Virus record (IMG/VR): IMGVR_UViG_3300031772_000048
Coordinates: 1 to 52,738 of that record
Source of the DNA: a virus
Taxonomy: Duplodnaviria > Caudoviricetes
DNA: 52,738 nt
Direction: 5' to 3' (one strand)
Below, piece after piece: positions 19,292 through 39,020 of this stretch. Position numbers and translations under genes: made by a program. The notes beneath the pieces were generated by a model. The model made no database searches, had not been told where the DNA came from, and saw only the letters and a list, made by a program, of their open reading frames with translations. The stretch's first letter is position 1. Every line of letters begins with the position of its first letter.

Positions 19292-19293
19292 TA

Positions 19294-21282: not shown

Positions 21283-21294
21283 CAAAGAAGATGA

Positions 21295-22068
21295 ATGAAA
21301 CTCCGACAACTGCTTCTAGAAATGAAGAAAGTACAAGAAGAAATAGGCGCCTCGCAGCCCTATATTTGTGGAGGCACGCCTAGAGACAAGTACATGGGCA
21401 AATTAGAAAATATAGCTGATTTAGATATTACTACCGGTGATAAAACAGTAGATTATCTTTCGCAAGAATTCTATTTGGAATTTCGCAAGAAATATAATGT
21501 CACCAGAAAAACTATGGAAGATGGACACAGCTCTATCTTTGTTGGTACTTTAAAAGTAGATTTTTCTTCTAATTTTATGGTTAACAATATTGATCGCATT
21601 CTGCAACAAATGGGCATGGCAAATCCTAATAACATGCAAAGAGAAATGTTCAGTAGAGATTTTACCTGCAACTCTCTATTACTAACTGTAGACCTTAAAA
21701 AGATATTAGATCCAACCAAACATGGATTTCAAGATATTAAAGATCGCAAAATTAAAACTTGTCTATCTCCTGAAATTACATTAACATCAAATAGAAATAG
21801 AGTTGTTAGGGCCATTTATTTAGCTTGCAAATTAGATTTTGATGTAGACCATGCAATTATTGATTATGTAAGTAAGAATCCTCAAACTGTTAAAATTTCA
21901 ACAGAAAAATCTATGACAGAAAAGCTAAATGACGCTTTCACTAGAGATGCCGATAGAGCGGCCAGCCTTGTCACTAGGATGAATTTATGGAATTATATTC
22001 CGGTTACTGAAAAAGTGTATCCATATTATATGCGACATACTAAGGGGAAAGCAAATGTCATTAAATAA
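21295..22068 (+). CDS. CCA-adding / poly(A) polymerase family nucleotidyltransferase
   Basis: GGTPRD, DLDITT, RDFTCNSL, DPTKHGFQDI; motif D reads SNRNR instead of EDxxR. Confidence 0.85.
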   Translation: MKLRQLLLEMKKVQEEIGASQPYICGGTPRDKYMGKLENIADLDITTGDKTVDYLSQEFYLEFRKKYNVTRKTMEDGHSSIFVGTLKVDFSSNFMVNNIDRILQQMGMANPNNMQREMFSRDFTCNSLLLTVDLKKILDPTKHGFQDIKDRKIKTCLSPEITLTSNRNRVVRAIYLACKLDFDVDHAIIDYVSKNPQTVKISTEKSMTEKLNDAFTRDADRAASLVTRMNLWNYIPVTEKVYPYYMRHTKGKANVIK

Positions 22069-23158
22069 AAAAGGATATTTCCAAGGTGGAGGCGGCGTCA
22101 ATGAACCAACACCCGGTGAAAAGAAATACAAATCTGACCCGGCCTTGGTTGTTCAGCCTCGTTTCAAAGAACCATTTTATCGCAACTACGATTTGTATAC
22201 AATTCCGGGCATGGAAGACATCGGCCCCGGCACGGGATACCACGGCCTACAAGGTTATAATTCAGTCTCGGAATTTCTAGAAGCGCGCAGAGAGAGACTG
22301 AAGCCTCGCTACGTGGCCGACGATTCATGGCAGCTCGATAGCGGTAAGCGTACCAAGGAAAATCCTGGGATTAAAGCACGAGCAGCTATTTTTGAAAGAA
22401 TAATCAAGACGGCCAGAATGCCTGGTATGGGTTTGTATCACTCTTTGCAAAGAAAATTTGGCCCCATAAATAGATGCGGCTTTTGTGGAAAATCGAAAAT
22501 TGATGTTACTTTTGATTGTGAACACTGCGGTAAAGGCGGCCCCGTCGTTAGAAAAAAAGCTGGCCCAAACTACGATTTGGGTAAAGGGCTATACCAAGAG
22601 ATGAGTGATGGCAAAGTTAATAGTGTAGAAGAATTTAGGGAAGAAGGCAACCATGGCCCTAGCGCCTTAATGAATGTTAAAAAGAAAGACGTTAATCATA
22701 TTGATTTCCCAATTGATGATGAAATTAATCATGATAGTATGATCTATCCTATAGAAGATGAATATGAAATAAGAAGAGAAAAAGGAGATAGATATCAGTT
22801 TCCGTCAGATGGCTCTTCTTTAGACCCGGAAGATTTGAATATTTCAATGACTAGCCCACAAATTGCTGGAGAGCACTCAAATTTACCAGAGCCAGATTTT
22901 GCAGGGCGTTCAGATGAAGCTCTTAATTTTGGAAGAGATTATGACGACGAGCCAGGTCCGGGTCGCCAGACTGCCGATGAAGTTCTCCAAAATCTTTTTA
23001 ATAAGTACTTATCCCCAAATGAGAGTGGACTATTTGGGCTTCCAGATGGCGTAGACCCAGAAGGCCATGACGCAGATCAAACTGAACAGGTTGAGCAGCC
23101 ATTTACTGGTAAATCCGACATAGGTACGGATATGTATGATGATAAATGGAATATCTAA
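22055..23158 (+). CDS. Putative internal head polyprotein
   Basis: Begins NKKG-YFQGGGGVNEPTPG (shared with the protease/scaffold); CGFC..CEHC Zn ribbon; acidic C-terminus. Confidence 0.7.
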   Translation: MSLNKKGYFQGGGGVNEPTPGEKKYKSDPALVVQPRFKEPFYRNYDLYTIPGMEDIGPGTGYHGLQGYNSVSEFLEARRERLKPRYVADDSWQLDSGKRTKENPGIKARAAIFERIIKTARMPGMGLYHSLQRKFGPINRCGFCGKSKIDVTFDCEHCGKGGPVVRKKAGPNYDLGKGLYQEMSDGKVNSVEEFREEGNHGPSALMNVKKKDVNHIDFPIDDEINHDSMIYPIEDEYEIRREKGDRYQFPSDGSSLDPEDLNISMTSPQIAGEHSNLPEPDFAGRSDEALNFGRDYDDEPGPGRQTADEVLQNLFNKYLSPNESGLFGLPDGVDPEGHDADQTEQVEQPFTGKSDIGTDMYDDKWNI

Positions 23159-23166
23159 AACTAACT

Positions 23167-23200
23167 ATTATCATTGCATACAACCGCATATAATCATATA
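23167..23200 (+). promoter_or_regulatory. Tandem late-promoter-like boxes with 10-bp period
   Basis: ATTA-N6-CATA-N6-CATA-N6-TATA. Confidence 0.55.
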
Positions 23201-23227
23201 AAGAAAGCACTCCCAGAGGTACCTTAA

Positions 23228-24169
23228 ATGACTTTACAATCCAGAGCACAAGAGCTATTTGTCATAGACCCAATCTCTCCGGCCTCCCAATTGCCGGCCA
23301 GCGACGAGAATTTTGTGTCCGCAATACCTCCACACCACGAGTATGAAGGCGAAGAGCAATTGATGAGTACAGGCCCAATTGAAGTAAATGAAGATGTTGA
23401 CATCGAATTGGTAGTAGATGAGCTTCCCGGTGCCCCGCCAGGCACTAAAGACCCAGAACTTGAGGTCCATGAAGAACCACTTCATGTTGAAGAAAAAGAA
23501 GATGCCAATGATGCTAAGAAAAGCAAAGATAGTGGCAAGAATGAAAAATGGGATTGGTCAAAACATGGCCCTCATGGATTTGCAGCTTGGATTAAAGTTA
23601 GGTTAGAGGACGTTCCAAAGCACTCTGGTTATGATTCAGCCGGCCTCGAACGCGCCATGGCTTACATGGAAAAACTAGATAGTGAAATTTCCAAGGCTAT
23701 GAGAATGGATTTGGATGGCGAATTAGATGCCAATCAAATTGAAAAAGTTCGCTCAGAATTAGATGAAGGCCTTTCTAGATTACAATCTCGTCTTGAAAAA
23801 GTTAAAGACTCTAAAAAATCTTCTCGTAAAAAGAAGAAGGCAGAATATGTTGTGGATGAAGATGGGTTCGTCAAAGAAGCTCAAAAAATTATGGGCGTAC
23901 AAGGCGTTTACATTACAGTCCCATTACTTATTGCTAGACTTGCTCGTATTTGTGTAAATGGTACAGTTTCTGCTGGCCATGATATTGAAGATCTATATGG
24001 TCGTCAAGTAAAGAAATTTGCTCTTAATGATCGTGAGCAAGCCGAATTAATGCAGCTTTTATTTGATATGGGCTACCCACTACGTCAAGATCGTGGCTTC
24101 ATGCCAGATGATGACCTCGAAGTATCTGATAGTGATAATATGGATTGGGCAGCTAACTATAGGGCGTAA
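23228..24169 (+). CDS. Putative internal head protein
   Basis: 313 aa; FVKEA, DANDAKK and LEV motifs; SD GAGG. Confidence 0.75.
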   Translation: MTLQSRAQELFVIDPISPASQLPASDENFVSAIPPHHEYEGEEQLMSTGPIEVNEDVDIELVVDELPGAPPGTKDPELEVHEEPLHVEEKEDANDAKKSKDSGKNEKWDWSKHGPHGFAAWIKVRLEDVPKHSGYDSAGLERAMAYMEKLDSEISKAMRMDLDGELDANQIEKVRSELDEGLSRLQSRLEKVKDSKKSSRKKKKAEYVVDEDGFVKEAQKIMGVQGVYITVPLLIARLARICVNGTVSAGHDIEDLYGRQVKKFALNDREQAELMQLLFDMGYPLRQDRGFMPDDDLEVSDSDNMDWAANYRA

Positions 24170-24171
24170 TA

Positions 24172-24807
24172 ATGAGCAAACCATCACGACATCAATCGGT
24201 AATCAATCGACAATCTGATGAAGGTTATAGCGAAGATCATTGGTTGAGACAATTTGAAGATAAGCTACAAAAGACTAGTGTTCAACCACGTGGTCAAAAT
24301 TTGTACGATCAAATTTCTACTATTATGAATAGTAAATCTAAATATCCTTCAGTGCAAGCTGCCGTGGATGATATGATGCACCGTAGTGGTCTCACTGATT
24401 ATTTACAACATGTTAAAATCTCTTCCGATGAAGAGGTTCCCGCCAAATCTAGAAAAACTGCACAACTAAAAGTAGATAGTAAAACTCCAGAGGTTATTAA
24501 GAATAAGCCCAGCATTTTGAATACCCTAGAAAATATTATCAAAGAGTCTAAGGGTAATTTATCAGTACCAACTATTATTAGTCGTTTACGCGCATTACAT
24601 GCTGCCGATATTTCTAATGAGGGAGCTTGGGAAGATGATAAATTGATTCGTTTGGTTAGCAGACTAAACCTACAAGCTAAGACTAGTAACCCTAGCAGCT
24701 ATGATAACTTCAATGATCTAGGCAAAGGCGATCATTCTACCGCTGAACGCGATATTGATCCATCTAATACGGATGCATTTAACGCTTTAATGCCCGCTAG
24801 AATTTAA
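24172..24807 (+). CDS. Putative internal head protein
   Basis: 211 aa; SRKTA and LQKTS motifs. Confidence 0.7.
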   Translation: MSKPSRHQSVINRQSDEGYSEDHWLRQFEDKLQKTSVQPRGQNLYDQISTIMNSKSKYPSVQAAVDDMMHRSGLTDYLQHVKISSDEEVPAKSRKTAQLKVDSKTPEVIKNKPSILNTLENIIKESKGNLSVPTIISRLRALHAADISNEGAWEDDKLIRLVSRLNLQAKTSNPSSYDNFNDLGKGDHSTAERDIDPSNTDAFNALMPARI

Positions 24808-24818
24808 CTCCTTTGCAC

Positions 24819-25370
24819 TTACCCAGCTTGTTTTTCAAGTTCTGGAGGATATTTGAGTGCAAATATTTTGCTGTATTTACAATTGTAACATAGCAACCGT
24901 TGTTTGTCATCTAAAGTTAGAACTATAATACGTTCTTCTTGACATTCTTTACAACAACCACCATGGGTTTTAACCATTTCTGTTTTGTATTTTAACATGT
25001 ACTTACTTTTATATAGTTTATTTCTGTTACAGTTATGACAAACAATTTGGTGCCCAGTCTTTTGTATAATAGTATTGTAAAGATAATTGATATCGCCATT
25101 AATGGTTAATTTGGAGTAATCATCTTCTCCACAAATAATACAAGCATTACCATAAGCCAAGATAACCGCACTTCGTCTCATACGATAGCGGTTATTTTGT
25201 TTTTTAGCGTATTCTGAATCATTCTGATGATGCTTCTTGTCATTTAATTTTCGGCATGGTTTGCAGATATAATAACCTTTATTTTGGTCGTAATTGGCCC
25301 AATTTTTAATGGTTAATGAAATGCCACATTTAGTGCATGCCTTTTTTCTGCGTTTTTTCGTGGAAACCAT
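24819..25370 (-). CDS. Degenerate HNH / Zn-finger homing-endonuclease-like protein
   Basis: CTKC..CKPC, then two YG..C..C.E...L....C.NC repeats lacking the catalytic DH; the only convincing minus-strand gene. Confidence 0.65.
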   Translation of the reverse strand: MVSTKKRRKKACTKCGISLTIKNWANYDQNKGYYICKPCRKLNDKKHHQNDSEYAKKQNNRYRMRRSAVILAYGNACIICGEDDYSKLTINGDINYLYNTIIQKTGHQIVCHNCNRNKLYKSKYMLKYKTEMVKTHGGCCKECQEERIIVLTLDDKQRLLCYNCKYSKIFALKYPPELEKQAG

Positions 25371-25396
25371 TATACTGAATATGCAATCATTTTAGT

Positions 25397-27280
25397 ATGA
25401 GCGCAATAAATGATGATAAAGATTTGTTCATCAAATTAAAAAAACAACTTATGATGTATGACCCTGTGGTTTTTTGTCAGGAATATTTAACACTTGAAGG
25501 AAAGGATTTCACTCTAAGTGGCAATGGATATAAACCGTTTGGTGATATCTATAGATATATTGGCGTCAAAGCTTTAGAGCCAGATTCAAAGCCAGTTATT
25601 ATAGTTAAAGGTCGTCAGGTTGGTGCTACCACCATGGCTAGCGCTTTAGAGATGTATTTCATGGGCTCTGGATTATTTGGAGATGGATTTAGGCCACCCA
25701 TTCGTGTTATTCATGCTTTTCCTCAATTAGAATTAGCTGCAGCCTATTCTAAAACTAAACTCAATCAAATGATTTCTCAGGCCAAAGTTCCTGAAGGCGC
25801 TAAAGAAAGTAAGTCAGGCGCCCGCCCTAAGTCTTACATGCAGCAATTACTTGATCAAACGACCGCGACTAATGATTCTCTTCACTTCAAACAATTTCAA
25901 GGAGGAAACCATTTGTGGGTTGAGTCTACTGGAGTTGACGCTGACCGTATCATGGGCCGTACTGCTGACGTTATCTTTTTTGACGAAGTTCAGAAGACAA
26001 CTGGCCAGGCCATCGGAAATGCTCTTAAAATTTTAACTACCGCCAAATATGGCAGACCAACTCAAGGAGTTCAAGTATATTTTGGAACACCAAGACGCAA
26101 GGGCTCTGATTTCCATAGAATGTGGCAGAAGTCCTCACAACAGTATTATCATTTAGGATGTGAAAATTGTAAAGAACATTTCCCATTATATACGCCCGGT
26201 TCTGATGATTGGCAGAAAATTTGGATTCGTGATAAAATTGTTAAGTGTCCTAAATGTAATTTTGAACAAGATAAGCTGGCGGCTCAAGAACGCGGCAAAT
26301 GGGTAGCCCTCAAAGATAGTCATGATCAAGACTGTGATATGATTGGATTTCATATTAACCAACTTTACATGCCAATGTTTACCAGAGAAGACATTGATAA
26401 AGAGCAGCCAGGTAGACATCCAATTAATACGGAACGCGTTTTTATGAACGAAGTTCTAGGAGAATTTTTTCAGGGTGACTCTAGCCCAATTTCTCCAGAT
26501 GAAATTCGTGATTTGTGTGCTGATAGAGAAAGAAAATTCAGCCCTCGTATTATGCCACCTAAAGGTTTAATTCAGCAGTTTGCTATACTTGGAATCGACT
26601 ATGGCGCCCGATCTGATTTAGAACAGCTAGCAGATCCTGATAGAGTTAAGCCAGCAGGCCAGTCTTATAGTACCGCCGTAGTTTTATTAACAAAAGGGCC
26701 AGGATTGTTGTCTATTGAATTTGCAACTAAATTCAAACGTAATGATATTGAAAGTAAAAAAGGAATTATCGATCAATTAATGAGACAATATAGTATTCAG
26801 TTGGCTGTAGGTGACATTGGATATTCTAATGACTTTTCAGCCATGTTACATAATACTTATGGAGATAGATATCTAGTTTCTCGCGCTCACAATAAGGTTA
26901 ATGATAAAGTAAAATTTAATGTAGATGCTTTTCCTAAAGAATTAGTTTTTGAAAGAGACTATTATATTTCAGAGATGTTTGAACAAATGAAAAAGGGAAT
27001 GATTAGATTTCCTTATGGCGATTATGAAAAAGTGGCTTGGTTAGTTGATCATTGTTCAAGTATGGAGCTAAAACCTTCTATTTCTAAATATGGCGATCAT
27101 ACTATTCATTATGTTAAAGGCGGAACTCCAAACGACGGATTTATGGCCTTGCTAAATGCTTATTTGGCTTATAAGTTTCTAATTACTCGTGGATTTACAA
27201 ATAATAATCCACAAGCACAAACTACCAGAAACATCAACAAACCTATGGTACTTGGTGGATACATGCCGAGGAAGTTTTAA
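25397..27280 (+). CDS. Terminase large subunit (lambda gpA-like)
   Basis: KGRQVGATT Walker A, FFDEVQ Walker B, GTP, CENC..CPKC Zn finger, GIDYG nuclease motif, PNDGFMAL. Confidence 0.92.
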   Translation: MSAINDDKDLFIKLKKQLMMYDPVVFCQEYLTLEGKDFTLSGNGYKPFGDIYRYIGVKALEPDSKPVIIVKGRQVGATTMASALEMYFMGSGLFGDGFRPPIRVIHAFPQLELAAAYSKTKLNQMISQAKVPEGAKESKSGARPKSYMQQLLDQTTATNDSLHFKQFQGGNHLWVESTGVDADRIMGRTADVIFFDEVQKTTGQAIGNALKILTTAKYGRPTQGVQVYFGTPRRKGSDFHRMWQKSSQQYYHLGCENCKEHFPLYTPGSDDWQKIWIRDKIVKCPKCNFEQDKLAAQERGKWVALKDSHDQDCDMIGFHINQLYMPMFTREDIDKEQPGRHPINTERVFMNEVLGEFFQGDSSPISPDEIRDLCADRERKFSPRIMPPKGLIQQFAILGIDYGARSDLEQLADPDRVKPAGQSYSTAVVLLTKGPGLLSIEFATKFKRNDIESKKGIIDQLMRQYSIQLAVGDIGYSNDFSAMLHNTYGDRYLVSRAHNKVNDKVKFNVDAFPKELVFERDYYISEMFEQMKKGMIRFPYGDYEKVAWLVDHCSSMELKPSISKYGDHTIHYVKGGTPNDGFMALLNAYLAYKFLITRGFTNNNPQAQTTRNINKPMVLGGYMPRKF

Positions 27281-27363
27281 GAAAGCATTATAAATACCGA
27301 GCTTTGGACTGATATATCATATTTAGTGTATTAGTGTAGAGGGTATAGTGGAACAGAGGTTAA

Positions 27364-29241
27364 ATGGCTGGCATTAAAAAATCAGGTTTGGGGGATCACC
27401 CATCCTTCTCAGCAAAATTCCTAACGGGCAGATCCACTACTCCGCAAGTTAGTGCTATTATGGCAAATGGTATTTCACAAGAAAGAAGGATTATTCTTTC
27501 TGATGAAGTTGATCAGGGTTATTTTAGAGATGGCACTGGTCCCAATTATAATAAGCTAGCAATGGAAAATTCCGAGACAGCCAATTCTCGTGTAGTATCT
27601 TCCCTTGGAATGAAGAAATTTGGACAGGCAGTTAGCAGCTCAGGCGGTATGTTTCGAGGCATCCATGGAGATTCTGTTAAACAAACTCCTGAAGTTTATT
27701 CCCCACTTTGGCTAAATAGTAATCTTAATCTACCTCGTGACCGTGCTACTATTAACGCGTGGTGCCGTAGTTTTTTTGCATTAAATCCATTCGTACATAA
27801 TGCTGTCAGTTTACATAGCACGTATCCAATTAGTAAGTTATCAATTAAATGTCCAAACAAAGATATCGAAAAATTCTTTGATGATATGATTGAAGAAATT
27901 GATTTAATGAATATTTGTGTACAGATTGCTCAAGAGTATTGGCTTTTGGGAGAAGCATTCGTGTATGCAGAGCTAGATGAAGGTAAAGGTAAGTGGAGCC
28001 GTTTACACATTCAGAATCCAGATTTTATGATTGTAAAACGTACTGTGGTAGCTAGCGAACCTATCATTATGTTACGTCCTGATGAAAATCTTAAGAAAAT
28101 AATTTTCTCTAATCGACCAACTGATATTGAGCAGCGTAAACAATTGAATCAGCACATCATTGATTCTGTTAGACGTGGAGAAAATATTCCACTTGATAAC
28201 TTCCATGTATCTCATTTGGCACGTAGAATTAGCCCTTACGAAATAAGAGGCACTGGTCTTCCAGTCTGTATTTTCCGTCAGTTAATGCTTTTTGATAAAT
28301 TAAGAGAGTCTAAATACGCTCAGTCTGATAATATGATTAATCCTTTGACTTTGGTTAAGATCGGTTCAGCCGATTACAAGCCAACCTTTGCTGATCTAGA
28401 AGCTTGGAGAGGTGTATTCGAAGAAGCTCAATATGATAAGGACTTTAAGATTTTCACTCATGAAGGTGTTGCTGTTGAAAGAGTTGGATGGGGCCAAGGT
28501 ATCTATGATATCTCTGGTGACATTACTCAGCTCATCAAGGAAATCTTCATTGGTTTATTTGTGCCACCAGTTATGATGGATGGCGGCTCTGACACTACTT
28601 ATGCTAATGGTGGCGTTGCTCTTGACGTTCTTCGTCAAAGATATATGCAGTTTCGTAATATGATGTCTACTTGGTTGAAGACTAAAATTTTCGCCCCAAT
28701 TTCTAAGATTCAAGGTTTCTACGATTACTCTGGCGGTGAGAAGCAGCTTATTGTTCCTGAAATTGATTGGAATCATATGAGTTTGTTTGATGCAGGCGAC
28801 TATATTAATAGTTTAGTTACCCTATCTCAAGGACAAGCTGATCAAAAAAGAGTTTCTATTCACACTTTGTATCGTTCTTTGGGACTTGAATATGAAGATG
28901 AAGTACGCAAGATGCGTGAAGAAAATATTCAAAATGCTATTGGTAAGAAAGAAATGGCAGCTTTAGAAGCAATGGATCTTAATTCTCTTCGTGCTTTGGA
29001 TAAAGAAGACGAAATTCCAGAGCCACAAACAGTTCCAGGACAGCCTGAACAACCATTGCCGGGCGAGTCTCCTGGTGGGGCTCCAGGCGGCCTACCAGAC
29101 CTTGGATTGCCGGGCGGTCCTCCTCCAGGGCCTCCAGGCGGCGGTCTTGGCGGACCTCCTCCTCCACCACCACCTTCGGGTGGACCTCCAGGGGGCGGGC
29201 CACCAAGTGGCGCACCTCTACCTCCACCACCAGCCGGATAA
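27364..29241 (+). CDS. Portal protein with Pro/Gly-rich tail
   Basis: Directly after the terminase; NPFVHNAV, EYWLLGEAFVY, H.ARR.SPYE.RG portal-like motifs. Confidence 0.85.
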   Translation: MAGIKKSGLGDHPSFSAKFLTGRSTTPQVSAIMANGISQERRIILSDEVDQGYFRDGTGPNYNKLAMENSETANSRVVSSLGMKKFGQAVSSSGGMFRGIHGDSVKQTPEVYSPLWLNSNLNLPRDRATINAWCRSFFALNPFVHNAVSLHSTYPISKLSIKCPNKDIEKFFDDMIEEIDLMNICVQIAQEYWLLGEAFVYAELDEGKGKWSRLHIQNPDFMIVKRTVVASEPIIMLRPDENLKKIIFSNRPTDIEQRKQLNQHIIDSVRRGENIPLDNFHVSHLARRISPYEIRGTGLPVCIFRQLMLFDKLRESKYAQSDNMINPLTLVKIGSADYKPTFADLEAWRGVFEEAQYDKDFKIFTHEGVAVERVGWGQGIYDISGDITQLIKEIFIGLFVPPVMMDGGSDTTYANGGVALDVLRQRYMQFRNMMSTWLKTKIFAPISKIQGFYDYSGGEKQLIVPEIDWNHMSLFDAGDYINSLVTLSQGQADQKRVSIHTLYRSLGLEYEDEVRKMREENIQNAIGKKEMAALEAMDLNSLRALDKEDEIPEPQTVPGQPEQPLPGESPGGAPGGLPDLGLPGGPPPGPPGGGLGGPPPPPPPSGGPPGGGPPSGAPLPPPPAG

Positions 29242-29322
29242 TGTTTTAAATCCGCCGAATTAGCTCTACTTGTGAATAATTCCACATAGTTTTAGCTATT
29301 ACATTCAGGTAGAGGGTTTTCT

Positions 29323-30570
29323 ATGGACAAATTTGCTCAAAGTAAAAGAGAAACGGGCCGAGGGGTAACGAACTGGTTAAGAGAAAAAGTTAATATGCCA
29401 GGCTCTTATATAGAAGGTTTTTTTAAACCGGAACTAGATAGAGTCATGAAAGCATTAATAGCTTTAGATGACCGAGTTCGTTCTGAATTAACAGGTAAGC
29501 AGATCGGTACTGCTGATACGCCAGCTATTGCTCATTCCGCCAAAGATCTTTTGAGTCAGGCTCGTAAGAACTTTAATCGTCGAGAGTATATTTCTGGAGT
29601 CTCTGATCTTGGTATGTTCCACAAGAAAATGGCCACTATTATAGCGGATATTGAGAAGTGGAAAGTAGATGTTAATAAGATTCATCACAAATTTTTATTT
29701 GAAGGTGTAAAAGACGACAAGATTCAACAGCTCAGAGATTATATGGAAAAGAGACAAGCTCAAGAGTTGAGAAATCAACTTATTAAAGAAGCTGGTATTA
29801 TGGACTTTTTCTATAATCTTGTTAACAAACGCGGTCGTTCTTTAGCAGCTTGGGAGAAGAAATACCCTAAGGAAACAAAAGATTTACGTGAAGGTGGCTC
29901 TAAACTATTAGATGTTGCTGACAGCTTATTGGCTAACACCATTTTTTACATGAAAGAAATGGCAACTGCACGCGCCACTCGTAGACCAGATGATTATATG
30001 GATGCTGCCAATAAAATCAAGGGAGACTTTGATAAATTTGATGCCGGCGATAAAGGATTCAAATCTTATTATGCTAATGCCATTTTACCATTCATGAAGA
30101 TCAAAGATCAGATTGAGAAGGATATGGCCGAGGCCGAAGCAAAAGCCAAAGCACAACAAGCTGCCAGTACAACTCCTTCAGCACCAGCTCCGGGTTCTGT
30201 TAGAACGGAACTTGGTACGCCTCCAACTTCTTCACAGTCAACAACCACTGCGCCTTTGCCAGCTACTCCTGGTATGGGTGGCGGTTATGTGTCAGTTGGT
30301 CCAAGCCCTTGGGCAGCACCACCACCAGCCGCATCTACAGAACAATTAGTGTCAGAAGAAGACATAGAGGGACCTTTGGGAGAAGAGCACCCTACAGACA
30401 AAACCCCGCCACCAAAGCACGCTCATTTCTTTAGTTCTCTAAAAACTATGAGTAATGAAGATCCTCGTATTTTATCTGGCTATATTTCTAAGTATGCCAA
30501 ATCTATTCAAGAAAGTGATTTGGAAACGGCTATTAAATTATTTGCCATTGTTAAAAGATTGAGAGGATAA
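29323..30570 (+). CDS. Putative internal head protein
   Basis: MDKFA-Q and LIKEA-G motifs; Pro/Thr linker. Confidence 0.7.
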   Translation: MDKFAQSKRETGRGVTNWLREKVNMPGSYIEGFFKPELDRVMKALIALDDRVRSELTGKQIGTADTPAIAHSAKDLLSQARKNFNRREYISGVSDLGMFHKKMATIIADIEKWKVDVNKIHHKFLFEGVKDDKIQQLRDYMEKRQAQELRNQLIKEAGIMDFFYNLVNKRGRSLAAWEKKYPKETKDLREGGSKLLDVADSLLANTIFYMKEMATARATRRPDDYMDAANKIKGDFDKFDAGDKGFKSYYANAILPFMKIKDQIEKDMAEAEAKAKAQQAASTTPSAPAPGSVRTELGTPPTSSQSTTTAPLPATPGMGGGYVSVGPSPWAAPPPAASTEQLVSEEDIEGPLGEEHPTDKTPPPKHAHFFSSLKTMSNEDPRILSGYISKYAKSIQESDLETAIKLFAIVKRLRG

Positions 30571-30571
30571 A

Positions 30572-31699
30572 ATGGCGGTCGGGGGTAAAGCTAACCTTGG
30601 ACCAAATTTTTATTCGAAATTGGTTCAAATATGTGAAGATTTGGGAATGAAGCCAGAAGACCTTCTGGCTGTCATGATCTCAGAGTCTGGCTTGAACCCA
30701 TCGGCATATGAAGAAAAGTATAAAGGATCTGGATTAATTGGATTTATGCCAGCAACTTTAAGAGGATTAGGTTACCAAGGCACCTGGCGAGATTTTATAA
30801 AACTTACTGGAGAAGAGCAATTAGATTGGGTTAAGAAGTTTATTCAAGGTAAACAAGGACTTATGGGTAATCGTAAGTTTACATCTGCTGGACTTTATTA
30901 TACTGGCAATCTTTGGCCAATAGCCCTAAAATTACCAGGAGTTATTAAGGAAGATCCTAATACACGCATTTTAGAATCTAATCCACAAACAGATTCAAGC
31001 GGTAAATATAGTAAAAAGTATTTTGATCTAGGTTTTAAAGTAAGCGCTAATTTTGAGAAGAAAGCATATGAAGCTAATCCACTTTTTGATCGTGATAAAA
31101 AGGGATACATCACTTATGGTGATATGATTAAGCAAACAGAGATCAATAGAAAGAGTTCCATATATCAACATGCAGTAGCTGATATGGCTAAAAATACCGG
31201 ATATCAACCAGGAAAAGCGCCACCCTCTATGGTAGCTCAAAAACAACCACTCGCACCGCTGGAGGAAATTTTGCAAAAATACATGGGAATGGCAGCCGCC
31301 GCCTCTCCAGATTTATCACTAAAGAGATTGTATAAAAAAGCTTTAGCCAGTAATGATATACTAATTCAAATCTCAGCACCCGATCATACAAGTGCTATTG
31401 AGTTCTCTCGTATTCTATGTGCTGCATTGGATGAAGATTTATTATCCTCTTCTTATCCACATACTGATGGACATTTAGTCGAAATAGAGTGTTCCATTTC
31501 TGGTCCACCCAAAGAATGTTTTGAGGCCGTTACGCAAATGACATGGGCCGTTACAGATACTTTTGAAGATGCGACCACCAAAATAGGCGGAATCAAAATC
31601 AAAACACATCAAATTATGAATAAAAAGTCATCTTATCAACCAATCAGCCCTAAAACTGCTGACACTAACTACAGGAAGTTCCTGCTAAAATTTATCTAA
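30572..31699 (+). CDS. Lytic transglycosylase (SLT-like) domain protein
   Basis: LLAVMISESGLNPSA (catalytic Glu) and GLIGFMPAT; a second domain follows LYKKA. Confidence 0.8.
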   Translation: MAVGGKANLGPNFYSKLVQICEDLGMKPEDLLAVMISESGLNPSAYEEKYKGSGLIGFMPATLRGLGYQGTWRDFIKLTGEEQLDWVKKFIQGKQGLMGNRKFTSAGLYYTGNLWPIALKLPGVIKEDPNTRILESNPQTDSSGKYSKKYFDLGFKVSANFEKKAYEANPLFDRDKKGYITYGDMIKQTEINRKSSIYQHAVADMAKNTGYQPGKAPPSMVAQKQPLAPLEEILQKYMGMAAAASPDLSLKRLYKKALASNDILIQISAPDHTSAIEFSRILCAALDEDLLSSSYPHTDGHLVEIECSISGPPKECFEAVTQMTWAVTDTFEDATTKIGGIKIKTHQIMNKKSSYQPISPKTADTNYRKFLLKFI

Positions 31700-31708
31700 G
31701 GAAATACG

Positions 31709-32122
31709 ATGCCATCGGAAAAACAACTTTTAGACACAATTCAGCAACTTCAAGGTTCTGGTAAAACGTTTGCTGAATTCATTTCAGAAGTTTTCAAAGA
31801 TAAATTCATTGAAGTATATGTCGGTGATTCTTATGAAGATGTAAGCACTGAACAAATATCAACCACTTACCCCGCTGTATTTTGTGGAAAGGTAGTGGGA
31901 GCTTATCGAGAATGTTTGATTATGAATTGCGCTTTTGTCGGCGGCAATCGTCATCTACAACTTGGTAATATGATGTTTGTTAGTGAAAGAGCAATTAGAG
32001 CTTTAAATGAAGTAGATGGCAGAGGAACTTTAGAAGATATGATGCTTCGCAGTAAAGAGACTTTAGATGTTAAAGAAGCTTTTGCTCATTTACAGAAACC
32101 AGATGAAACAACAAAGAAATGA
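31709..32122 (+). CDS. Hypothetical protein, possibly Sm/LSm-like beta fold
   Basis: IEVYVG...FCGKVVGAYRECLIM...MFVSERAIRAL pattern; the fold is an inference. Confidence 0.5.
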   Translation: MPSEKQLLDTIQQLQGSGKTFAEFISEVFKDKFIEVYVGDSYEDVSTEQISTTYPAVFCGKVVGAYRECLIMNCAFVGGNRHLQLGNMMFVSERAIRALNEVDGRGTLEDMMLRSKETLDVKEAFAHLQKPDETTKK

Positions 32123-32862
32123 ACAACACTGATGCCCTACTACAACTTGCTAGCACTTATGAAGCTAAGTGCATCCAGGTGCTGGTAAAGATTGCGAAAG
32201 TTCGCAAACTTCCAGACGGTAGGTATCGTGTACTCTCTCAAAAGGGCAAAGACCTTGGGACTTACAAGTCTCAAAAGGCTGCCGAAAAAAGACTTCGACA
32301 AGTTGAGTTTTTCAAACATTTAGATAAATCCAAGGCCGATGATAGCGGTAAAGTTATTGATTTAACCGGAGCTGATGAATTTAGTTATTCAGCATTAATG
32401 CGCAAGCTTCGTCAAGAAGCTACACCAGAACAAGTTAAACAATTTTTGAAACTATTCAAATTGCAATTTGATAAAGCTGTTAAAGGCAAAATGAATAAGC
32501 CAGAAAGAATAGCTTTACAAAATTCTATTATTAGATTCCATAAGATACATCCAGTTAAACTTGATAAGAAAATGGTTAAATGTGCGGCCGTTGCCGAATT
32601 AGGTAATGCAGATCAAGTTGGACAATATTTATCTGGTATCGTTTCATTTATTCTAAATAGACTTCCTCCAGAGAAGCGCTCGCATGCAACTCAAATTCTT
32701 AAACAGAAATTTGCCGTTATGAGTGAGAATGAAATTGCCGGAAAACACATGCCAAACGCTGCTGTTTATGGTCAAGCGATTACATTCGTTAAGCACGTTT
32801 TGTTTAATCAAGATGCTAATTATATTAGAAATGTTCTAAATAGCTTATCGAGAAGTCTATGA
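32119..32862 (+). CDS. Putative head protein
   Basis: LVKIA followed by the small module VRKLPDGRYRVLSQKGKDLGTY...A.KRLRQVEFFKH; also MVKCA. Confidence 0.7.
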   Translation: MNNTDALLQLASTYEAKCIQVLVKIAKVRKLPDGRYRVLSQKGKDLGTYKSQKAAEKRLRQVEFFKHLDKSKADDSGKVIDLTGADEFSYSALMRKLRQEATPEQVKQFLKLFKLQFDKAVKGKMNKPERIALQNSIIRFHKIHPVKLDKKMVKCAAVAELGNADQVGQYLSGIVSFILNRLPPEKRSHATQILKQKFAVMSENEIAGKHMPNAAVYGQAITFVKHVLFNQDANYIRNVLNSLSRSL

Positions 32863-33629
32863 TTAGAAAGTTTCGCCAAGTAATTCCTCAAGTATTATAT
32901 CGTGGTTCTGCACCTTCTCCTAAAGATGTTATGGAGCTTAAAGATAAATTGGGTATTAAAAAGATTGTTTCTTTGGATAAAGACACTGGCGATAGAATTG
33001 ATCGTTCTTGTAAAATGTTAGGAGTTGATCATGTTAAAATGTATATTGATCATACTCGTAAAAGTTTATATCATTTTTTATCACAAGATCTTAAAAAACT
33101 ATTTCTAGATGGTGGCCCGACTTTTATTCATTGTCATGAGGGCAAAGATCGTACTGGTTTAGCTATCGCTTTAGTCAAGTGTAAATTTCTGGGTATGGAT
33201 CCTGAAAAAGCTATACAAGAAGCCAAGTCATTCGGTTTTGGTATTGGTATTCCCCCACAGATGACTCATCTATATGAGAAACTTATTCGTTCTTGCAAAC
33301 CCGTTAAAGATACAAATAGTGCTGATATAGTTTCAAATGAAAGAGAGTATAAGGGTGACGGCCGAGATAGTTTTCTCGATGAAGGTCATCAAGGATCTTT
33401 TGCTCCGCACCTCGATCAAACTAAGCAAGACCCAATGGATTCATTATACCCCTCTACATTAGACCAATATCCTACACGTCAAAATTATCAAAGCCCACCA
33501 TTATTTCGGCATGATCCTAGCAACAGTGTTGCCATTCCCAATGTTGGCGAATATGACAATGACGCGGGACAACGTGGTTTTGGCCCGGTAGAACGTATGG
33601 ATGGATTTTTTTCAGAGGTAGGCCATTAA
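32859..33629 (+). CDS. Protein-tyrosine / dual-specificity phosphatase family
   Basis: LYRGSAP, IVSL and the CX5R loop HCHEGKDRTG. Confidence 0.88.
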   Translation: MIRKFRQVIPQVLYRGSAPSPKDVMELKDKLGIKKIVSLDKDTGDRIDRSCKMLGVDHVKMYIDHTRKSLYHFLSQDLKKLFLDGGPTFIHCHEGKDRTGLAIALVKCKFLGMDPEKAIQEAKSFGFGIGIPPQMTHLYEKLIRSCKPVKDTNSADIVSNEREYKGDGRDSFLDEGHQGSFAPHLDQTKQDPMDSLYPSTLDQYPTRQNYQSPPLFRHDPSNSVAIPNVGEYDNDAGQRGFGPVERMDGFFSEVGH

Positions 33630-33630
33630 A

Positions 33631-34281
33631 ATGATCAAGAAGTCTTATTCTGTACAAATGAGTTATGATGTGTCTGATACTGAAAAGCAGCAGGCAGAGA
33701 AAGCGCTATTGTATTTTAAGGCCGCTGACAAATATCTAGCACAAGCTGCCGATCATCTTAATATCATGAAGACTCCTTTTAAAGATAATCCAGATATGAC
33801 AAGCGAAGATATCATGAAAGCTCGCGCCACCATTCGTCAGTTTAGAAATAAAGCCATTGATAATTTTGATAAGTTTAAAAGAGTATCTTTTGATTGCGTC
33901 AATCTTATGCAAACATTTTCTACTGACACTCAAACTCTTAAATTAATAAAATCATTTATTACCTCTATTGATGAGTTAGAAGTGAAAGTTAATGGATTTG
34001 CCGATCTATTTGGCGATTTGCAATCTAAAGAATTCACTAAAAATGTAGTTGCCGCCATTGAAGATATTCAAAAGCAGTGCGATGATATTGATGAAATTAT
34101 TGATGAAAGAATAGTTTCTCATATTCAAACTAATATCTTGGCAACTAGTTGGGTAGATTCTATTAGTAATGACTTGCAAATGAAAATAGAGAAGAAGACT
34201 CCGCTTATTGTGGATCTTTTTAATAAAAGGCAAGAGCAGTTAAATGATGCAGTAGAGGAGAAATCCACAACAGGAAACTGA
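33631..34281 (+). CDS. Helical hypothetical protein
   Basis: 216 aa; begins MIKKS. Confidence 0.7.
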   Translation: MIKKSYSVQMSYDVSDTEKQQAEKALLYFKAADKYLAQAADHLNIMKTPFKDNPDMTSEDIMKARATIRQFRNKAIDNFDKFKRVSFDCVNLMQTFSTDTQTLKLIKSFITSIDELEVKVNGFADLFGDLQSKEFTKNVVAAIEDIQKQCDDIDEIIDERIVSHIQTNILATSWVDSISNDLQMKIEKKTPLIVDLFNKRQEQLNDAVEEKSTTGN

Positions 34282-34385
34282 AATTAAATGGTAATATCGT
34301 CATATAATATATGAACTTTCTGTCTTAGACTGAAATTTGTAGCAATATTACATTATAATTGTGTGGTCTCCCATTTGGAGAGTTT

Positions 34386-34541
34386 ATGTTTATTAAACAC
34401 GGTGATGGAAAAATATTAAACGTTGTTGATGGTGAAGAGCTAACTGAAGATCAGAAAAAAGCCGTCAAGAAAGTTTCTAAAGAGTTCGTCAAACAATCTG
34501 ACGAATCAACTGATTCTTCTAAGAAGAAGTCGGAGAGCTAA
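34386..34541 (+). CDS. Small protein upstream of the protease
   Basis: SD GGAG then ATG 34386 (MFIKHGDG...). Confidence 0.6.
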   Translation: MFIKHGDGKILNVVDGEELTEDQKKAVKKVSKEFVKQSDESTDSSKKKSES

Positions 34542-34546
34542 TACGC

Positions 34547-37500
34547 ATGCCCATTATTAAATTAGGTGAAGCACATGAAATTAAACTTGAGAACATGGAA
34601 TCATGTCTTCCCGAGGTTAGTGCTGAGGTCTTAGATAACTTTAGGAAATTTGCGAATAATCTGAAAAAGGTTGCCCCTAAAGCAGAAGACTTCCTATATT
34701 TTTCCGCCGTAATGATGCATGCTGCTGAAGCTGCCGCTTTGAATGAAGACGGCACTCCCAAACTAACAATTAAAGGCGAAGCAGTTGAAGTAGGCTGGGA
34801 TACATCGGGTAATACATGGAAGTGGACTTCTAATGACCCAAGTATAAAACCATATAAAAATTCTAATGGTGACATTTTTCCAGAAGCCGAATTAACCAAA
34901 GCTTACAAAAAATGGAAACATAAGCCTCTATGCGTAGATCATAAATCGAGTTCGGTTGATCATGTAAGAGGCTTTATTGTTGATACCTATTATGATCGTA
35001 GTCTCAAGCGAGTAATTGCTTTATGCGCCTTAGATAAGGCCGGATTTCCACAATTAGCTAGACAAATTTCTACTGGCGTTTCTAACTGCGTATCTATGGG
35101 TACTGCTGTTGGAAGAGCCATTTGCTATGATTGCGGTAGAGTCGCTCGTGCAGAGCCAGACTTCTGTAATCATATGAAAAACAAGACGTGCTACGGTGAA
35201 ATCAACGTAGATCTCAATCCAATTGAGCTATCTATTGTTGTGAATGGTGCTGATCCTAGAGCCAATATCAAACACATCATTGCCGCAGCCAACACTATGA
35301 ACACTTATCTCGAAAATAGAGCTAAGGAGTTAGAAAAAGTAGCATCTACATATTCTGCTACTATTATCAGAAGTAATGAATCTAATGGTTCAGAAGTTTC
35401 TGATATGAATACTATCTCGGTTCGTGGCGAATCTTTAGAGTCTTTTAAACAAGACTTCGAAAGAGGACTTGAGGAATTAGAGTCTCTTAATTCAAAAATT
35501 TCTGAAAAAGATACTAATTCTTCTGCATCTAATCAGTCGTCGGGTTCGATCGCTATGGATGAAGGTGCCCCGACGGATTCTGGATTGGCTCTCCAAACTC
35601 CGCCAATAAGATTGGCATCTGCTGATGTAGAAGCAGAATCACTAGCCGAACTTCAACAAGTTACAGCCGCTATTGAGGCCACGCTAAATCAAATGAAGAC
35701 GAGCTTGGATAAGTTAGCTAAAACTTCTACTATGAAAAAACAAGAGGAAAACATGTCTGGATCAAAAGAAATCAATAAGCAAGCTTATTTCCAGGGCGGC
35801 GGTGGCGTTAATGAGCCAACTCCAGGTCAAGTCAAATATCCAAAAGACGGGTTAAATGAGCAACTTCGTGAACACGAAGATAAGCACATGACCGGTCAAC
35901 CACCTTTCCCTGAGGTTGGTCCTGTGGATGGAATGCACCCTTCACCAGCTTCGGCTGATCCTTCTGGCGAATTAGAGCGTAAGAAAATGCTCGCTCGCGC
36001 TGAAGCAGAAGATAGGGCATTAAAACGTAATGCAATTGTTAACCTGGCAAAAGACGCTCTCCGAAACAGAGAAGCTTATTTTCAAGGTGCTGGTGGTGTA
36101 AACGAGCCAACTCCAGGTAAAGTTAAGTATCCAAAGGATAAACTTAACGAAGAACTTCGTGATTATGAAGATAAGCACATGGTTGGTCAACCGCCTTTCC
36201 CAGGTGTTGGTCCAGTTGATGGAATGCATCCTTCTCCAAGTTCTGCTGATACAAAAGATGAACTAAAGCGTAAGCAAATGTTAGCTAGAGCAGCCCTCCG
36301 TGCAAGATTTGTTAAGGCCGCTAATCGTAATGGTACTCAGAATAAAGCTAAGAGTGCTTGGGAAGTTTTCCTTGGTGATAGACTATTGTTAACAGCCTCT
36401 GTTGAAGATTTGTCTGGCGGAAATACTGACGTACTATATGATTCAATTGCTACTAAGGCTTTCGGCGCCAGCTTGATCGAAAAGGTCAAAGTTAATGGTG
36501 CGGATGCAGTTAGTAGACTAATTAAGAGAGCCGCTGAACCAGGCGCTCCTCCAGCCCCTCCAGGCGATCCAGCCGCAGCACCACCAGGTGGTGAGATGGG
36601 TGCCGCACCAGAAGCTGGTCCTCCAGCCGAAGATGAAGGTAAATCTGGCGATCCTAAGCAACATGCTCTACAATTATCTGAAAAGGTAATGAATCTCAGC
36701 TCCGATCTTCACGAAGCAGTTCGTGCTTTGGCCGGCGAACAAGCTGAAATGGGTGGCGCAGAAGCCGCTCCAGCAGGTGGTGTTGGTGGTCCAGCAGGTG
36801 GCCCAATGGCCGCTGATGATCAAGATGCTCGCAAGAAGAAGATGGATTCTTCCAAAGAAGCTTCTGATAGTTTTAGCACTTCCACTCTCAATACTTTGAG
36901 AAGAGAATTAAATGGCGCATTAACTCATGCAATGAAAGAAGCTGTTGCTGACCTTAATGAACACCAGCAAGAACTAGACATGATTGTTGGTATGTACGAC
37001 AAGGGAGCTGTCAACGACACTAATCAAGATTTTGTTGGCACTATTGTAGAAGACGCATTAAATGAAGCTAAGACCTCAGTGGCCGATGGTTTCAAGTTGA
37101 TGACCGCCTTTGTTAAGTATGCTCGTGGTACCAAAGCCATTGTCAAACGTGCTGAGATTGAATCAGAACTTGAAGCACTAGCCGAAGGAGATACGATGAG
37201 CGATAAGAACGATAGTCACTCCGCAGACGGCGGTGACTTAATGGGACTAATTAACGACACCAATGCCGATTTGGATGCGGTTCATGATATGATGAACCAT
37301 GAAGGAATGGACGATTTAGGTGACCTAGGTATTGATGGTCTTCTTGAAGAAGGCCATGAAGACCACGAAGATCACGAAGATCCTCTTCTAGAAGGTTTGG
37401 CAGATGATAATGATGTCGAAATTAAACCAGAAGAATTGAAGATGCTAACTCAAGCTTCGTTTGATAACAGAGCTGGCCGCGCATCACTCAGAGCCAAATT

Positions 37501-38224: not shown

Positions 38225-38249
38225 AGCTTAACCTAGAACGAGGATACAA

Positions 38250-39020
38250 ATGAAAAACCAAAGCGTATCAGATTTTGTAGCTGCAACTATGGATGCAGTT
38301 CTAAACAGCAAAGAGCACAAGTCTTTGTTTGCAACACAATATAAGAAGGCGGGCGAATCTATGTGTGCTAAACACAGTAAGATGGATAGCTGCGCTGCCG
38401 ATGACGAGAATGATGCTCGCAAAAAGAGGGATACCGATGAGGATTCTTCTAGTGCTTGGGACGATAATGATGCTCGCAAAAAGAGAGATACCGATGAGGA
38501 CTCTAGCGATGCTGATGATAATGATGCTCGCAAAAAGAGAGATACTGATGAAGACTCTAGCGATGCAGACGACGATGATGACAACGATGCTGAGGATCCT
38601 AAGAAGCCAGTCAAATTTGATCCTAACTTTGGTGGCCGTGATGTTGGCGGGCCTTCCGTCAGTAAAGCTGATGATATGGAAGCCTCTGCCGCATTCGATG
38701 TAGCTATTGATAGCTTATTGACCGCATCTGCCGCTTTAGACTCAGTTGGTCTAGGTCGTGGTTCTGCTCTTACTTTGAAGATCGCTTCTTTGGTTGTTGA
38801 AGCCAAGAAGAAGGACTCAAAAGATAAGAAGGATGAGAAAAAGAAGAAGGACGATAAGAAAAAGAAGGACAAAGATACTCAGTCTGCTAAAGACAAGAAA
38901 TCTAATCCTTTTGCCAAGAAGAAGGATGATAAGAAAGATGATAAAAAGAAACCATCATCTTCGAAACCATCATCTTCTAAGCCATCTAGCTCTTCATCTT
39001 CCTCTCCAAAGAAAAAGTAA
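38250..39020 (+). CDS. Highly charged (Asp/Lys) low-complexity protein, putative internal DNA-associated protein
   Basis: NDARKKRDTDEDSS repeats and a K/D/S-rich tail; SD GAGG. Confidence 0.75.
   Translation: MKNQSVSDFVAATMDAVLNSKEHKSLFATQYKKAGESMCAKHSKMDSCAADDENDARKKRDTDEDSSSAWDDNDARKKRDTDEDSSDADDNDARKKRDTDEDSSDADDDDDNDAEDPKKPVKFDPNFGGRDVGGPSVSKADDMEASAAFDVAIDSLLTASAALDSVGLGRGSALTLKIASLVVEAKKKDSKDKKDEKKKKDDKKKKDKDTQSAKDKKSNPFAKKKDDKKDDKKKPSSSKPSSSKPSSSSSSSPKKK
38409..38591 (+). repeat. Coding tandem repeat, 54-57-bp unit, about 3.3 copies
   Basis: aatgatgctcgcaaaaagag.gatac.gatga at 38409, 38466 and 38520. Confidence 0.9.

Follow-up and report, generated by a model that had tools for sequence, protein, structure and literature searches.

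A peptide shared by the protease-scaffold gene and a small head-region gene of a huge-phage clade: a candidate prohead docking signal

Introduction

The virus record IMGVR_UViG_3300031772_000048 (Duplodnaviria; Caudoviricetes) of the IMG/VR database comprises 52,738 bases (52.7 kb) with 39% G+C and contains 50 open reading frames (ORFs) which encode 16,324 residues. We analysed this whole stretch and refer to it as the window. The peptide YFQG[GA]GGVNEPTPG is encoded three times in it: once in P0004, a small protein of no known family, at residue 8, and twice in P0005, an ORF which fuses a prohead protease to a scaffold-like region, at residues 414 and 511. Why do these two genes share a peptide, and what does it do? 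An initial annotation, made from the sequence, regarded it as a cleavage site exposing a conserved new N-terminus. The answer we tentatively prefer is that it is a shared prohead docking signal which is probably trimmed at the [AGS]|Y bond.

Results

Three copies of one peptide in two genes

The initial annotation had quoted the peptide at positions 22076, 35786 and 36077, and the translations bear this out: they read MSLNKKG-YFQGGGGVNEPTPGEKKY in P0004 and NKQA-YFQGGGGVNEPTPGQVKY and NREA-YFQGAGGVNEPTPGKVKY in P0005. A six-frame scan of the entire window found no fourth copy. The coordinates of all features are given in Table 1. In P0005 each copy heads one unit of a tandem duplication with a period of 291 nucleotides (nt), the DNA being 76% identical over 220 nt and 63 of the 97 residues being identical. 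A BLASTP comparison of P0004 with P0005 matched the motif region with E = 9e-10, so the shared peptide did not arise by chance. The BLASTP alignment extended beyond the motif and suggested further homology, but this was ruled out by a profile-profile comparison (hhalign) of the flanks of the two families outside the motif, which gave a probability below 2% and no homology.

Table 1. Coordinates of the features of the window treated in the text
Feature	Position	Strand	Remarks
CCA-adding/poly(A)-polymerase-type nucleotidyltransferase gene, P0009, 257 residues	21295..22068	+	PF01743, PHROG
Shine-Dalgarno-like AAGGGG, 7 nt before the P0004 ATG	22042..22047	+	Read from sequence
P0004, 367 residues, no known family, motif at residue 8	22055..23158	+	
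Motif copy in P0004, residues 4-28, NKKG-YFQGGGGVNEPTPGEKKYKSD	22064..22138	+	14-residue core 22076-22117
Large terminase	25397..27280	+	PHROG E = 3.8e-57
Portal	27364..29241	+	PHROG E = 1.5e-49
P0005, prohead protease-scaffold fusion ORF, 1225 residues	34547..38224	+	
Protease domain of P0005, residues ~30-250	34634..35296	+	
Putative internal Shine-Dalgarno site AGAGGA (35743-35748) and in-frame ATG, codon 403 (35753-35755)	35743..35755	+	
Two tandem 97-residue repeat units of P0005, residues 410-506 and 507-603, motif heading each	35774..36355	+	
Motif copy 1 in P0005, residues 410-434, NKQA-YFQGGGGVNEPTPGQVKYPKD	35774..35848	+	Core 35786-35827
Motif copy 2 in P0005, residues 507-531, NREA-YFQGAGGVNEPTPGKVKYPKD	36065..36139	+	Core 36077-36118
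Major capsid protein, P0006, 337 residues	48968..49981	+	53% identity to phage G gp27, E = 3e-100

The three pairwise comparisons of the 42-nt cores gave 8, 10 and 8 differences, of which 8, 8 and 6 fall in codons that keep the residue. Across all loci fetched for this study the identical 14-mer is encoded by 49 distinct DNA versions with 2-4 synonymous codons at every codon position, some of the loci behind these counts having been fetched by a pattern that demands the peptide. The comparison of DNA with peptide confirmed what the initial annotation had deduced from synonymous divergence, that the peptide is kept by purifying selection at the protein level, in the face of saturated change at synonymous sites. 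It also bears on the idea that the element is a functionless leftover of a duplicated segment or a signal at the nucleotide level. The two scaffold copies are indeed a tandem duplication, but so many DNA versions of one peptide, flanks which diverged beyond recognition while the peptide was kept and conservation over hundreds of database clusters all speak against this already disfavoured idea, which we regard as extremely improbable.

Distribution among relatives

We collected relatives in three ways. Set A was obtained with a degenerate DNA pattern for the 14-mer and contains 74 IMG/VR loci, many of them on contigs of 200-481 kb. Set B was retrieved through the protease domain without use of the motif; 198 loci were confirmed and 80 kept, of which 15 were missed by the anchor regular expression and left unevaluated, and 59 ORFs were of sufficient length. 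Set C comprises 58 loci retrieved through the domain downstream of the motif in P0004, again without use of the motif. The first two sets were ascertained through the motif or its conserved neighbours, and the counts over relatives include close kin and do not represent independent events. The relatives and the window belong to a clade of huge phages with contigs of up to 481 kb, whose nearest cultured relative is Bacillus phage G.

All 99 motif instances in the 74 loci of set A fall in homologues of P0004 or P0005. In set B a loose regular expression matched 43 of the 59 long-enough ORFs; among the other 16 we found variants with a shorter or longer loop in 14 and in locus L116, and locus L133 was left uninspected. 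The initial annotation had looked to the homologues for a test of its claim. There, every one of the 58 scaffold ORFs of sufficient length that we inspected has the motif, and in set C it stands immediately upstream of the retrieved domain in 57 of the 58 loci. What did not hold is presence throughout the small family: three of its homologues, from two complete genomes and locus L223, are without the motif, and the scaffolds of the same three keep two copies. That the motif is dispensable on the small protein while the scaffolds retain both copies is in keeping with a role as a tag.

Five genomes of 433-481 kb, which CheckV rated as 97-100% complete, allowed us to look at whole gene sets. The motif profile matched the scaffold, with two copies each, in all five; the small protein carries the motif in three and is a motif-less homologue in the other two, and no other genes matched. 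A profile search of a protein database returned 963 clusters at E <= 0.001, and the best 120 of these 963 matches are all scaffold proteins. In a genome collection of 185,579 species the pattern was found on one contig only, L310 (26,768 bases), which belongs to a metagenome-assembled genome labelled Candidatus Berkiella. It carries a complete scaffold-protease gene of the present clade and so probably stems from a phage and was binned with a bacterium. Searching the Bacillus phage G genome with the repeat unit gave no match at E <= 10, and a megablast of positions 19000-39000 of the window against a phage collection found no match either.

Anatomy of the element

The description of the loop and anchors was drawn from 140-208 unique variants. 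The full element reads (N)-K/R-x-[AGS]-[YFW]-[FYW]-Q-G, followed by a loop of 1-12 residues and by E-P-T-P-G-x-x-K-Y-x-x-D/E. Rarer residues are admitted at several positions of the first anchor ([FYW(H,I)], [Q(L,N,H)], [G(N)]), and the second anchor can be written as [E/T]-P-x-P-[G/K]-x-x-[K/Q]-Y-x-x-[D/E]. In the window the loop is GGGVN; elsewhere it can be a lone T or reach 12 residues (e.g. GEGPNNPNT). As the loop between the anchors is variable, the 'GGGG' part is a linker. Copy 2 of the scaffold is the more variable one in relatives, with Q replaced by L, N or H and with loops of up to 12 residues.

According to the initial annotation the peptide always directly follows K/R-x-A/G. This is true of all three copies in the window, and we extended the count to 207 unique DNA instances from the window and the relatives, excluding one regular expression match which contained a stop codon; the residues upstream of the motif were part of no search pattern. 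K or R was found at position -3 in 201 of the 207 instances and A, G or S at -1 in every one. The six exceptions have Lys close by, at -2 (four cases) or at -5 (two). Position +1, directly behind the proposed bond, is Y, F or W in all 207.

Conservation of the element within P0005 is comparable to that of an enzyme core. Over 29 full-length relatives (motif-ascertained), residues 414-427 showed a mean identity of 0.93, the third highest value of the protein and equal to that of the protease core, and the preceding 150 residues scored only 0.2-0.5. The segment is nevertheless predicted to be disordered. In the AlphaFold2 model of P0005, which covers residues 1-622, the predicted local distance difference test (pLDDT) score is below 50 over most of each copy (residues 392-424, 509-521 and 523-525; means of ten-residue blocks 35-49), and in the model of P0004 the block means are 45-55 over the first 30 residues, motif included. 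Short, conserved, disordered and near a terminus, the motif has the traits of a cargo peptide.

Several other readings of the residues were considered and dropped. Prolyl-hydroxylase and sortase-like readings of E-P-T-P-G were abandoned since many members of the small family have Lys in place of the Gly. YFQG equals the core of the tobacco etch virus protease site; judging by titles and abstracts, 10 of the 16 papers that contain YFQGGGG seem to deal with engineered proteins, which agrees with a protease site plus Gly linker, and we take the likeness to be a coincidence.

The element at the start of two modules

In the small family the element lies at a gene junction. The gene upstream of P0004, P0009, contains the head domain of the Pfam family PolyA_pol (PF01743; 48.9 bits, cut-off 23) and matches the tRNA nucleotidyltransferase family in PHROG with E = 1e-12. 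Its last 14 nt (22055-22068) are at the same time the first of P0004, and its stop codon TAA lies inside the AAT-AAA (Asn-Lys) codons of P0004, within an A-rich run (AAATAAAAAAGG). Behind the N-terminal motif P0004 has a conserved basic region of ~100 residues, a variable middle, an acidic tail and a conserved C-terminus (...YEDKWNI). It belongs to no family in Pfam or PHROGs and has no usable match in the ESM Atlas, and its AlphaFold2 model is mostly of low confidence (mean pLDDT 53.9) and largely disordered. The middle differs strongly in length across the family; in the window, residues 141-160 (22475-22534) form a zinc-ribbon-like CxxC...CxxC insert, which a few relatives also have and most lack.

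Of 42 unique small-family ORFs, 12 are fused in frame to the upstream nucleotidyltransferase. The motif then sits at the junction, 4-9 residues after the conserved ...PYY(M/L)K end of the enzyme. In split pairs the small gene was in the +1 frame in 20 of 20 classifiable cases, a count which leaves out 13 loci where the signature of the enzyme end was not found and two missed by the motif regular expression. In 19 of these pairs the stop codon of the enzyme falls within the N-K codons, 10 nt ahead of the Tyr codon in 16 pairs and 13 nt ahead in three; in the remaining pair it lies 55 nt upstream. At loci L174 and L220 other sequences precede the motif. These fusions and fissions, together with the other upstream sequences, indicate that the element marks the N-terminal edge of a module which can follow almost anything. 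It is conceivable that low-level +1 frameshifting makes some fused product even in genomes with split genes.

Does the scaffold also have such an edge? The motif of copy 1 lies deep inside P0005, but the sequence AGAGGA sits five bases upstream of the ATG at codon 403. Translation from there would give a nested scaffold protein of 823 residues (predicted, 35753-38224) which starts with MSGSKEINKQA-YFQGGGG. An ATG occurs 5-13 codons before the Tyr codon in 83 of 85 unique copy-1 contexts, and in 81 of the 83 a Shine-Dalgarno-like site accompanies it; for copy 2 such an ATG is present in 23 of 78. The site is kept although the encoded residues change (E-E, E-D, K-E, R-E), and its Glu codon is GAG in 82 of 83 cases compared to 26% among the Glu codons of the window ORFs. 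As a control within the window, a Shine-Dalgarno-like site was found before 37 of 400 internal in-frame ATGs and before 31 of 50 ORF starts. The conserved pair of Shine-Dalgarno site and ATG implies, as a signature, an internal translation start that would yield a scaffold-only protein. With such a start the motif would be N-proximal in both proteins (MSGSKEINKQA-YFQGGGG and MSLNKKG-YFQGGGG), at residues 8-32 of the predicted nested scaffold and at residues 4-28 of P0004.

Some side observations concern the scaffold gene and its surroundings. Ala/Pro-rich repeat DNA (GCxCCA units) at 36530-36635 in the scaffold gene is like that at 21208-21259 in a 662-residue ORF (19294-21282). The ORF directly 3' of the scaffold gene (38250-39020), for which no family was found, has three tandem repeats of 18-19 residues in which Asp, Lys and Arg abound (38402-38581 in the DNA); a run rich in Lys and Asp is encoded at 38805-38869.

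The protease and the candidate cleavage site

Residues 105-213 of P0005 match the head maturation protease family PHROG 18299 with E = 9.4e-12. A tblastn comparison gave 34% identity to gp19 of Bacillus phage G, and there are also matches to annotated capsid maturation proteases of actinophages. No Pfam family was found for P0005 at E <= 0.01, and sequence searches of the PDB with the protease domain and two nearby ORFs returned nothing meaningful. The long C-terminal part is helical or of low complexity and scaffold-like. The protease domain was modelled with ten-residue block pLDDT values mostly of 65-88 and dips to 43-52. Nine of the first ten rows of a Foldseek search of the PDB were herpesvirus assemblins and T4 gp21 was at rank 16, with E-values of 0.05-0.15, which are not significant; the low template modelling scores are explained by the 622-residue model being half disordered. 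H132 and S183 are invariant in 36 sequences and may be the catalytic residues, an inference from this alignment.

In some relatives the protease domain is interrupted by an intein (protein P0209; L048:3700-8445 and L055:1276-5328, both on the - strand). The intein of L048 has Hint and LAGLIDADG domains and that of L055 only Hint/Intein_splicing domains. The insertion site in L048 lies in the conserved segment KPYKN|SNGDIFPE, corresponding to P0005 residues 104/105.

Known prohead proteases cut at short sites. At the herpesvirus R and M sites the cut follows Ala, according to the accessible passages of PMC4498786, which also give YLQA-T and VQA-S for pseudorabies virus. The SPN3US site is A-X-E, and the SPN3US and T4-type enzymes cut after Glu in 3-residue motifs according to the part of PMC10052503 available to us. 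Three observations make a cut before the peptide plausible: K/R-x-[AGS] stands before an aromatic pair, the position is junctional and the enzyme is probably assemblin-like. We then find that [KR]-x-[AGS]-[YFW]-[FYW] matches only the three motif copies in the 50 window ORFs (16,324 residues), compared to 2.4 matches expected by chance, and that positions 413 and 510 are the only conserved sites of the scaffold alignment with an aromatic residue next. The claim of the initial annotation, that cleavage exposes a conserved N-terminus, is accordingly strengthened in one respect and limited in another: the element does lie at the start of a module (at the fusion point, the P0004 start and the putative internal scaffold start), but a pattern found in no other window ORF is not the protease's general specificity.

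Could the whole element be just a cleavage site, that is, an extended recognition sequence of the prohead protease or a host protease whose P' residues have no later function? The strict pattern at P3 and P1, the junctional position and a probably assemblin-like enzyme with precedents for a small P1 residue agree with this. We still consider it improbable: the known prohead protease sites, as given in the passages above, are 3-4 residues long compared to 20+ near-invariant P' residues here, two anchors that are 1-12 loop residues apart are ill-suited to a single active-site cleft, and neither the scaffold nor the other window ORFs have any further site.

Head-gene context and the candidate partner

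Both motif genes sit in the head-morphogenesis region near the terminase and the portal. The large terminase contains the Pfam domain GpA_ATPase and the portal is 33% identical to gp14 of phage G. The 3' end of the portal gene (29055-29232) encodes Gly/Pro-rich direct repeats (PGESPGGAPGG..., GGPPPPPPP). Since the scaffold is one of the carriers and both genes lie in the head region, the partner of the peptide is most likely part of the procapsid.

The major capsid protein was first placed at 41581-42804 or 42816-43979, and both candidates were dropped when a tblastn comparison with phage G pointed to 48968-49981. The protein is the most conserved of the candidate partners: its identity is 87-99% over the best 120 database clusters and 90-100% among the 80 loci that were kept. 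Its residues 1-42 (48968-49093) form an N-terminal extension, MNMF...LVKYAAILEEN...GLAGQ, which has no counterpart in phage G gp27; it is absent from many homologues of 30-45% identity and conserved in 79 related loci. Perhaps the extension acts as a small propeptide, or else as an arm that binds the scaffold. A complex prediction for the capsid protein with the protease domain (P0005 residues 20-255) and the motif segment (residues 404-470) scored 0.00 against a mark of 0.32 and was run with no controls, so it argues neither for nor against binding.

The same context helps to judge whether the motif has anything to do with the capsid at all. It might instead bring a host or phage factor to the two unrelated proteins (for instance a chaperone, Clp-type protease or modifying enzyme), or serve the nucleotidyltransferase. 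In favour of such a role are the Rosetta-stone fusion of P0004 with the PolyA_pol-type enzyme, the two adjacent ClpP paralogues present in five of the five complete relatives (433-481 kb) and the Y, F or W at +1 in all instances. On the other side, the scaffold itself is a carrier, both genes lie by the terminase and the portal, ClpS was found in none of the five complete relatives, and the only contig in the collection of 185,579 species carries a phage scaffold gene. We give a role outside the capsid a low probability.

Tyr, Phe and Trp N-termini are not known to be exposed by methionine aminopeptidase and are read as N-end-rule degrons in bacteria. The element could on this basis be a built-in timer: it would dock the scaffold and P0004 in the procapsid, and after a cut by the protease at K/R-x-[AGS]|[YFW] the released products would start with Tyr, Phe or Trp and be marked for destruction by Clp proteases, the phages' own two ClpP included. 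We regard the timer as a long shot; if true, it would link capsid maturation to regulated proteolysis. Virion proteomics of phage G reports ClpP and ClpX, and the part of this multi-omics preprint available to us gives no cleavage specificity (10.1101/2024.12.16.628780).

The left end of the window (406-3921) contains a DNA polymerase III alpha-type gene, which is complete and encodes PHP, NTPase, finger and HHH domains.

Discussion

We return to the question of what the peptide does. Disordered in the models, bipartite, under selection and optional on the small protein, the motif behaves like a short linear motif that is read by a common partner. In the reading we prefer, this motif would lie in a disordered segment at the N-terminal edge of each of the two proteins and act in both as a signal for prohead assembly. 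The 1225-residue ORF would be read in two ways, as the full-length protease-scaffold fusion and as a scaffold-only protein from codon 403, so that a short variable leader and then the shared peptide would stand at the start of the scaffold and of P0004 alike. The peptide would dock both proteins on one highly conserved site of the procapsid, the scaffold being bivalent through its duplicated copy. We infer that the candidate partner is the major capsid protein, given its conservation across the clade and its clade-specific extension; the portal or the protease domain appears less likely. The protease, probably assemblin-like, would then cut K/R-x-[AGS]|Y and remove the leader or an upstream domain, namely the protease with its linker in the fusion and the nucleotidyltransferase in the fused relatives. 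Taken separately, docking by the peptide seems probable to us, and cleavage at [AGS]|Y is plausible but somewhat less likely than not.

A number of points weigh against this reading. Docking and cleavage are both proposals, drawn from sequence and models, and the internal start is known from sequence signals only. With the protease domain in cis the motifs were modelled mostly at low confidence (pLDDT <50) and there is no sign of self-docking on the protease. The conserved P' side of 20+ residues far exceeds the needs of known prohead-protease sites, and the variable spacing of the two anchors does not suit a simple cleavage site. The candidate site pattern is absent from all other window ORFs, the capsid protein and the portal included, so the protease must use other sites for most of its work. 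It is just as possible that the upstream K and the small residue belong to a binding epitope. The gene fusions link P0004 to a nucleotidyltransferase without a known head role, and P0004 may be no head protein at all. Finally, the loop types of the small protein and of scaffold copy 1 of the same genome agree in 21 of 25 pairs, but we had to reject this as a sign of co-adaptation: it corresponds to only 2-4 independent contrasts (sign test, p = 1), and the match is explained by shared ancestry.

Some of these points favour a pure docking peptide. Here nothing would be cut, K/R-x-[AGS] would belong to the bound epitope (e.g. as the first strand of a hairpin with x-K-Y-x-x-D/E as the second) and the leaders would be retained. 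This would account for conservation that covers ~25 residues and reaches to either side of the proposed bond, for two anchors joined by a linker of variable length, for the disorder of the segment, for a tag that is optional on the small protein and for the lack of the pattern in other head proteins. It gives no reason why a leader, rather than the initiator Met alone, precedes the first conserved residue; the nucleotidyltransferase would stay tethered in the fused relatives, though close relatives make the two proteins separately; and it too has a candidate partner only. We consider docking without any cleavage unlikely, and continue to favour docking combined with trimming.

To our knowledge, almost nothing is known of the core organisation in phages of 400-500 kb, which have very large capsids; only phage G has been cultured and it is without the element. 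A 25-residue peptide which is nearly unchanged over hundreds of genomes, on the scaffold and on a second protein, offers a handle on the assembly of such cores. It predicts a conserved receptor site on the procapsid and a processing bond, and it might serve as a portable tag for loading proteins into such capsids.

How does this compare with known systems? UL26/UL26.5 of herpesviruses is an assemblin-scaffold fusion with an in-frame nested scaffold gene in the accessible passages of PMC4498786, and those of PMC11565193 describe a scaffold ORF in frame for a malacoherpesvirus as well. As far as these passages go, the herpesvirus gene and P0005 have in common an N-terminal protease, probably of the assemblin type in P0005, and a long scaffold in one ORF, an in-frame internal start (putative but conserved here) and a candidate processing site with a small P1 residue. 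They differ in that the nested protein has a separate transcript there and would use a bacterial Shine-Dalgarno site and ATG here, and in that the site lies upstream of the nested start there and 5-13 residues after it here. The site here also precedes a conserved peptide of ~20 residues which is duplicated and common to a second gene, and we identified no herpes-like C-terminal M site in P0005. Phage lambda C/Nu3 is a parallel nested pair of protease and scaffold. The nested scaffold gene we propose would extend this strategy of herpesviruses and of lambda to the present clade.

For the propeptides of the T4 and phiKZ/SPN3US head proteins, roles in targeting are described in the accessible part of PMC10052503. 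There, as here, a short N-terminal element occurs on unrelated proteins; the carriers described go into the prohead core and are substrates of a protease with the gp21/assemblin fold, whereas packaging of P0004 is only a proposal. In T4 the conserved peptide (the capsid targeting sequence) is the part that is removed and is enough to package foreign proteins, and cleavage is after Glu. In our case the leader is variable, the conserved part would remain on the mature protein and P1 would be A, G or S.

Cargo-loading peptides of encapsulins are short, conserved, disordered and terminal, and direct different proteins to one site on an HK97-fold shell. The capsid and scaffold proteins of Staphylococcus phage 80alpha reportedly share a common N-terminal peptide that is cleaved by Prp. 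The sequence of our element is unrelated to both; it is bipartite with a variable loop and known from sequence alone. The head module of Bacillus phage G has a homologous protease (34%), portal (33%) and major capsid protein (53%). It differs in that its gp19 is a stand-alone protease of 300 residues, its capsid protein lacks the 42-residue extension and its genome has no match to the repeat unit.

A literature search for GVNEPTPG found no paper, subscription journals and supplementary files lying outside the search. Known in kind are protease-scaffold fusions with nested starts, propeptide and targeting signals, and docking peptides; the searchable literature has no description of this element or its bipartite form, of its second carrier being a nucleotidyltransferase-linked protein, or of the clade in which it occurs.

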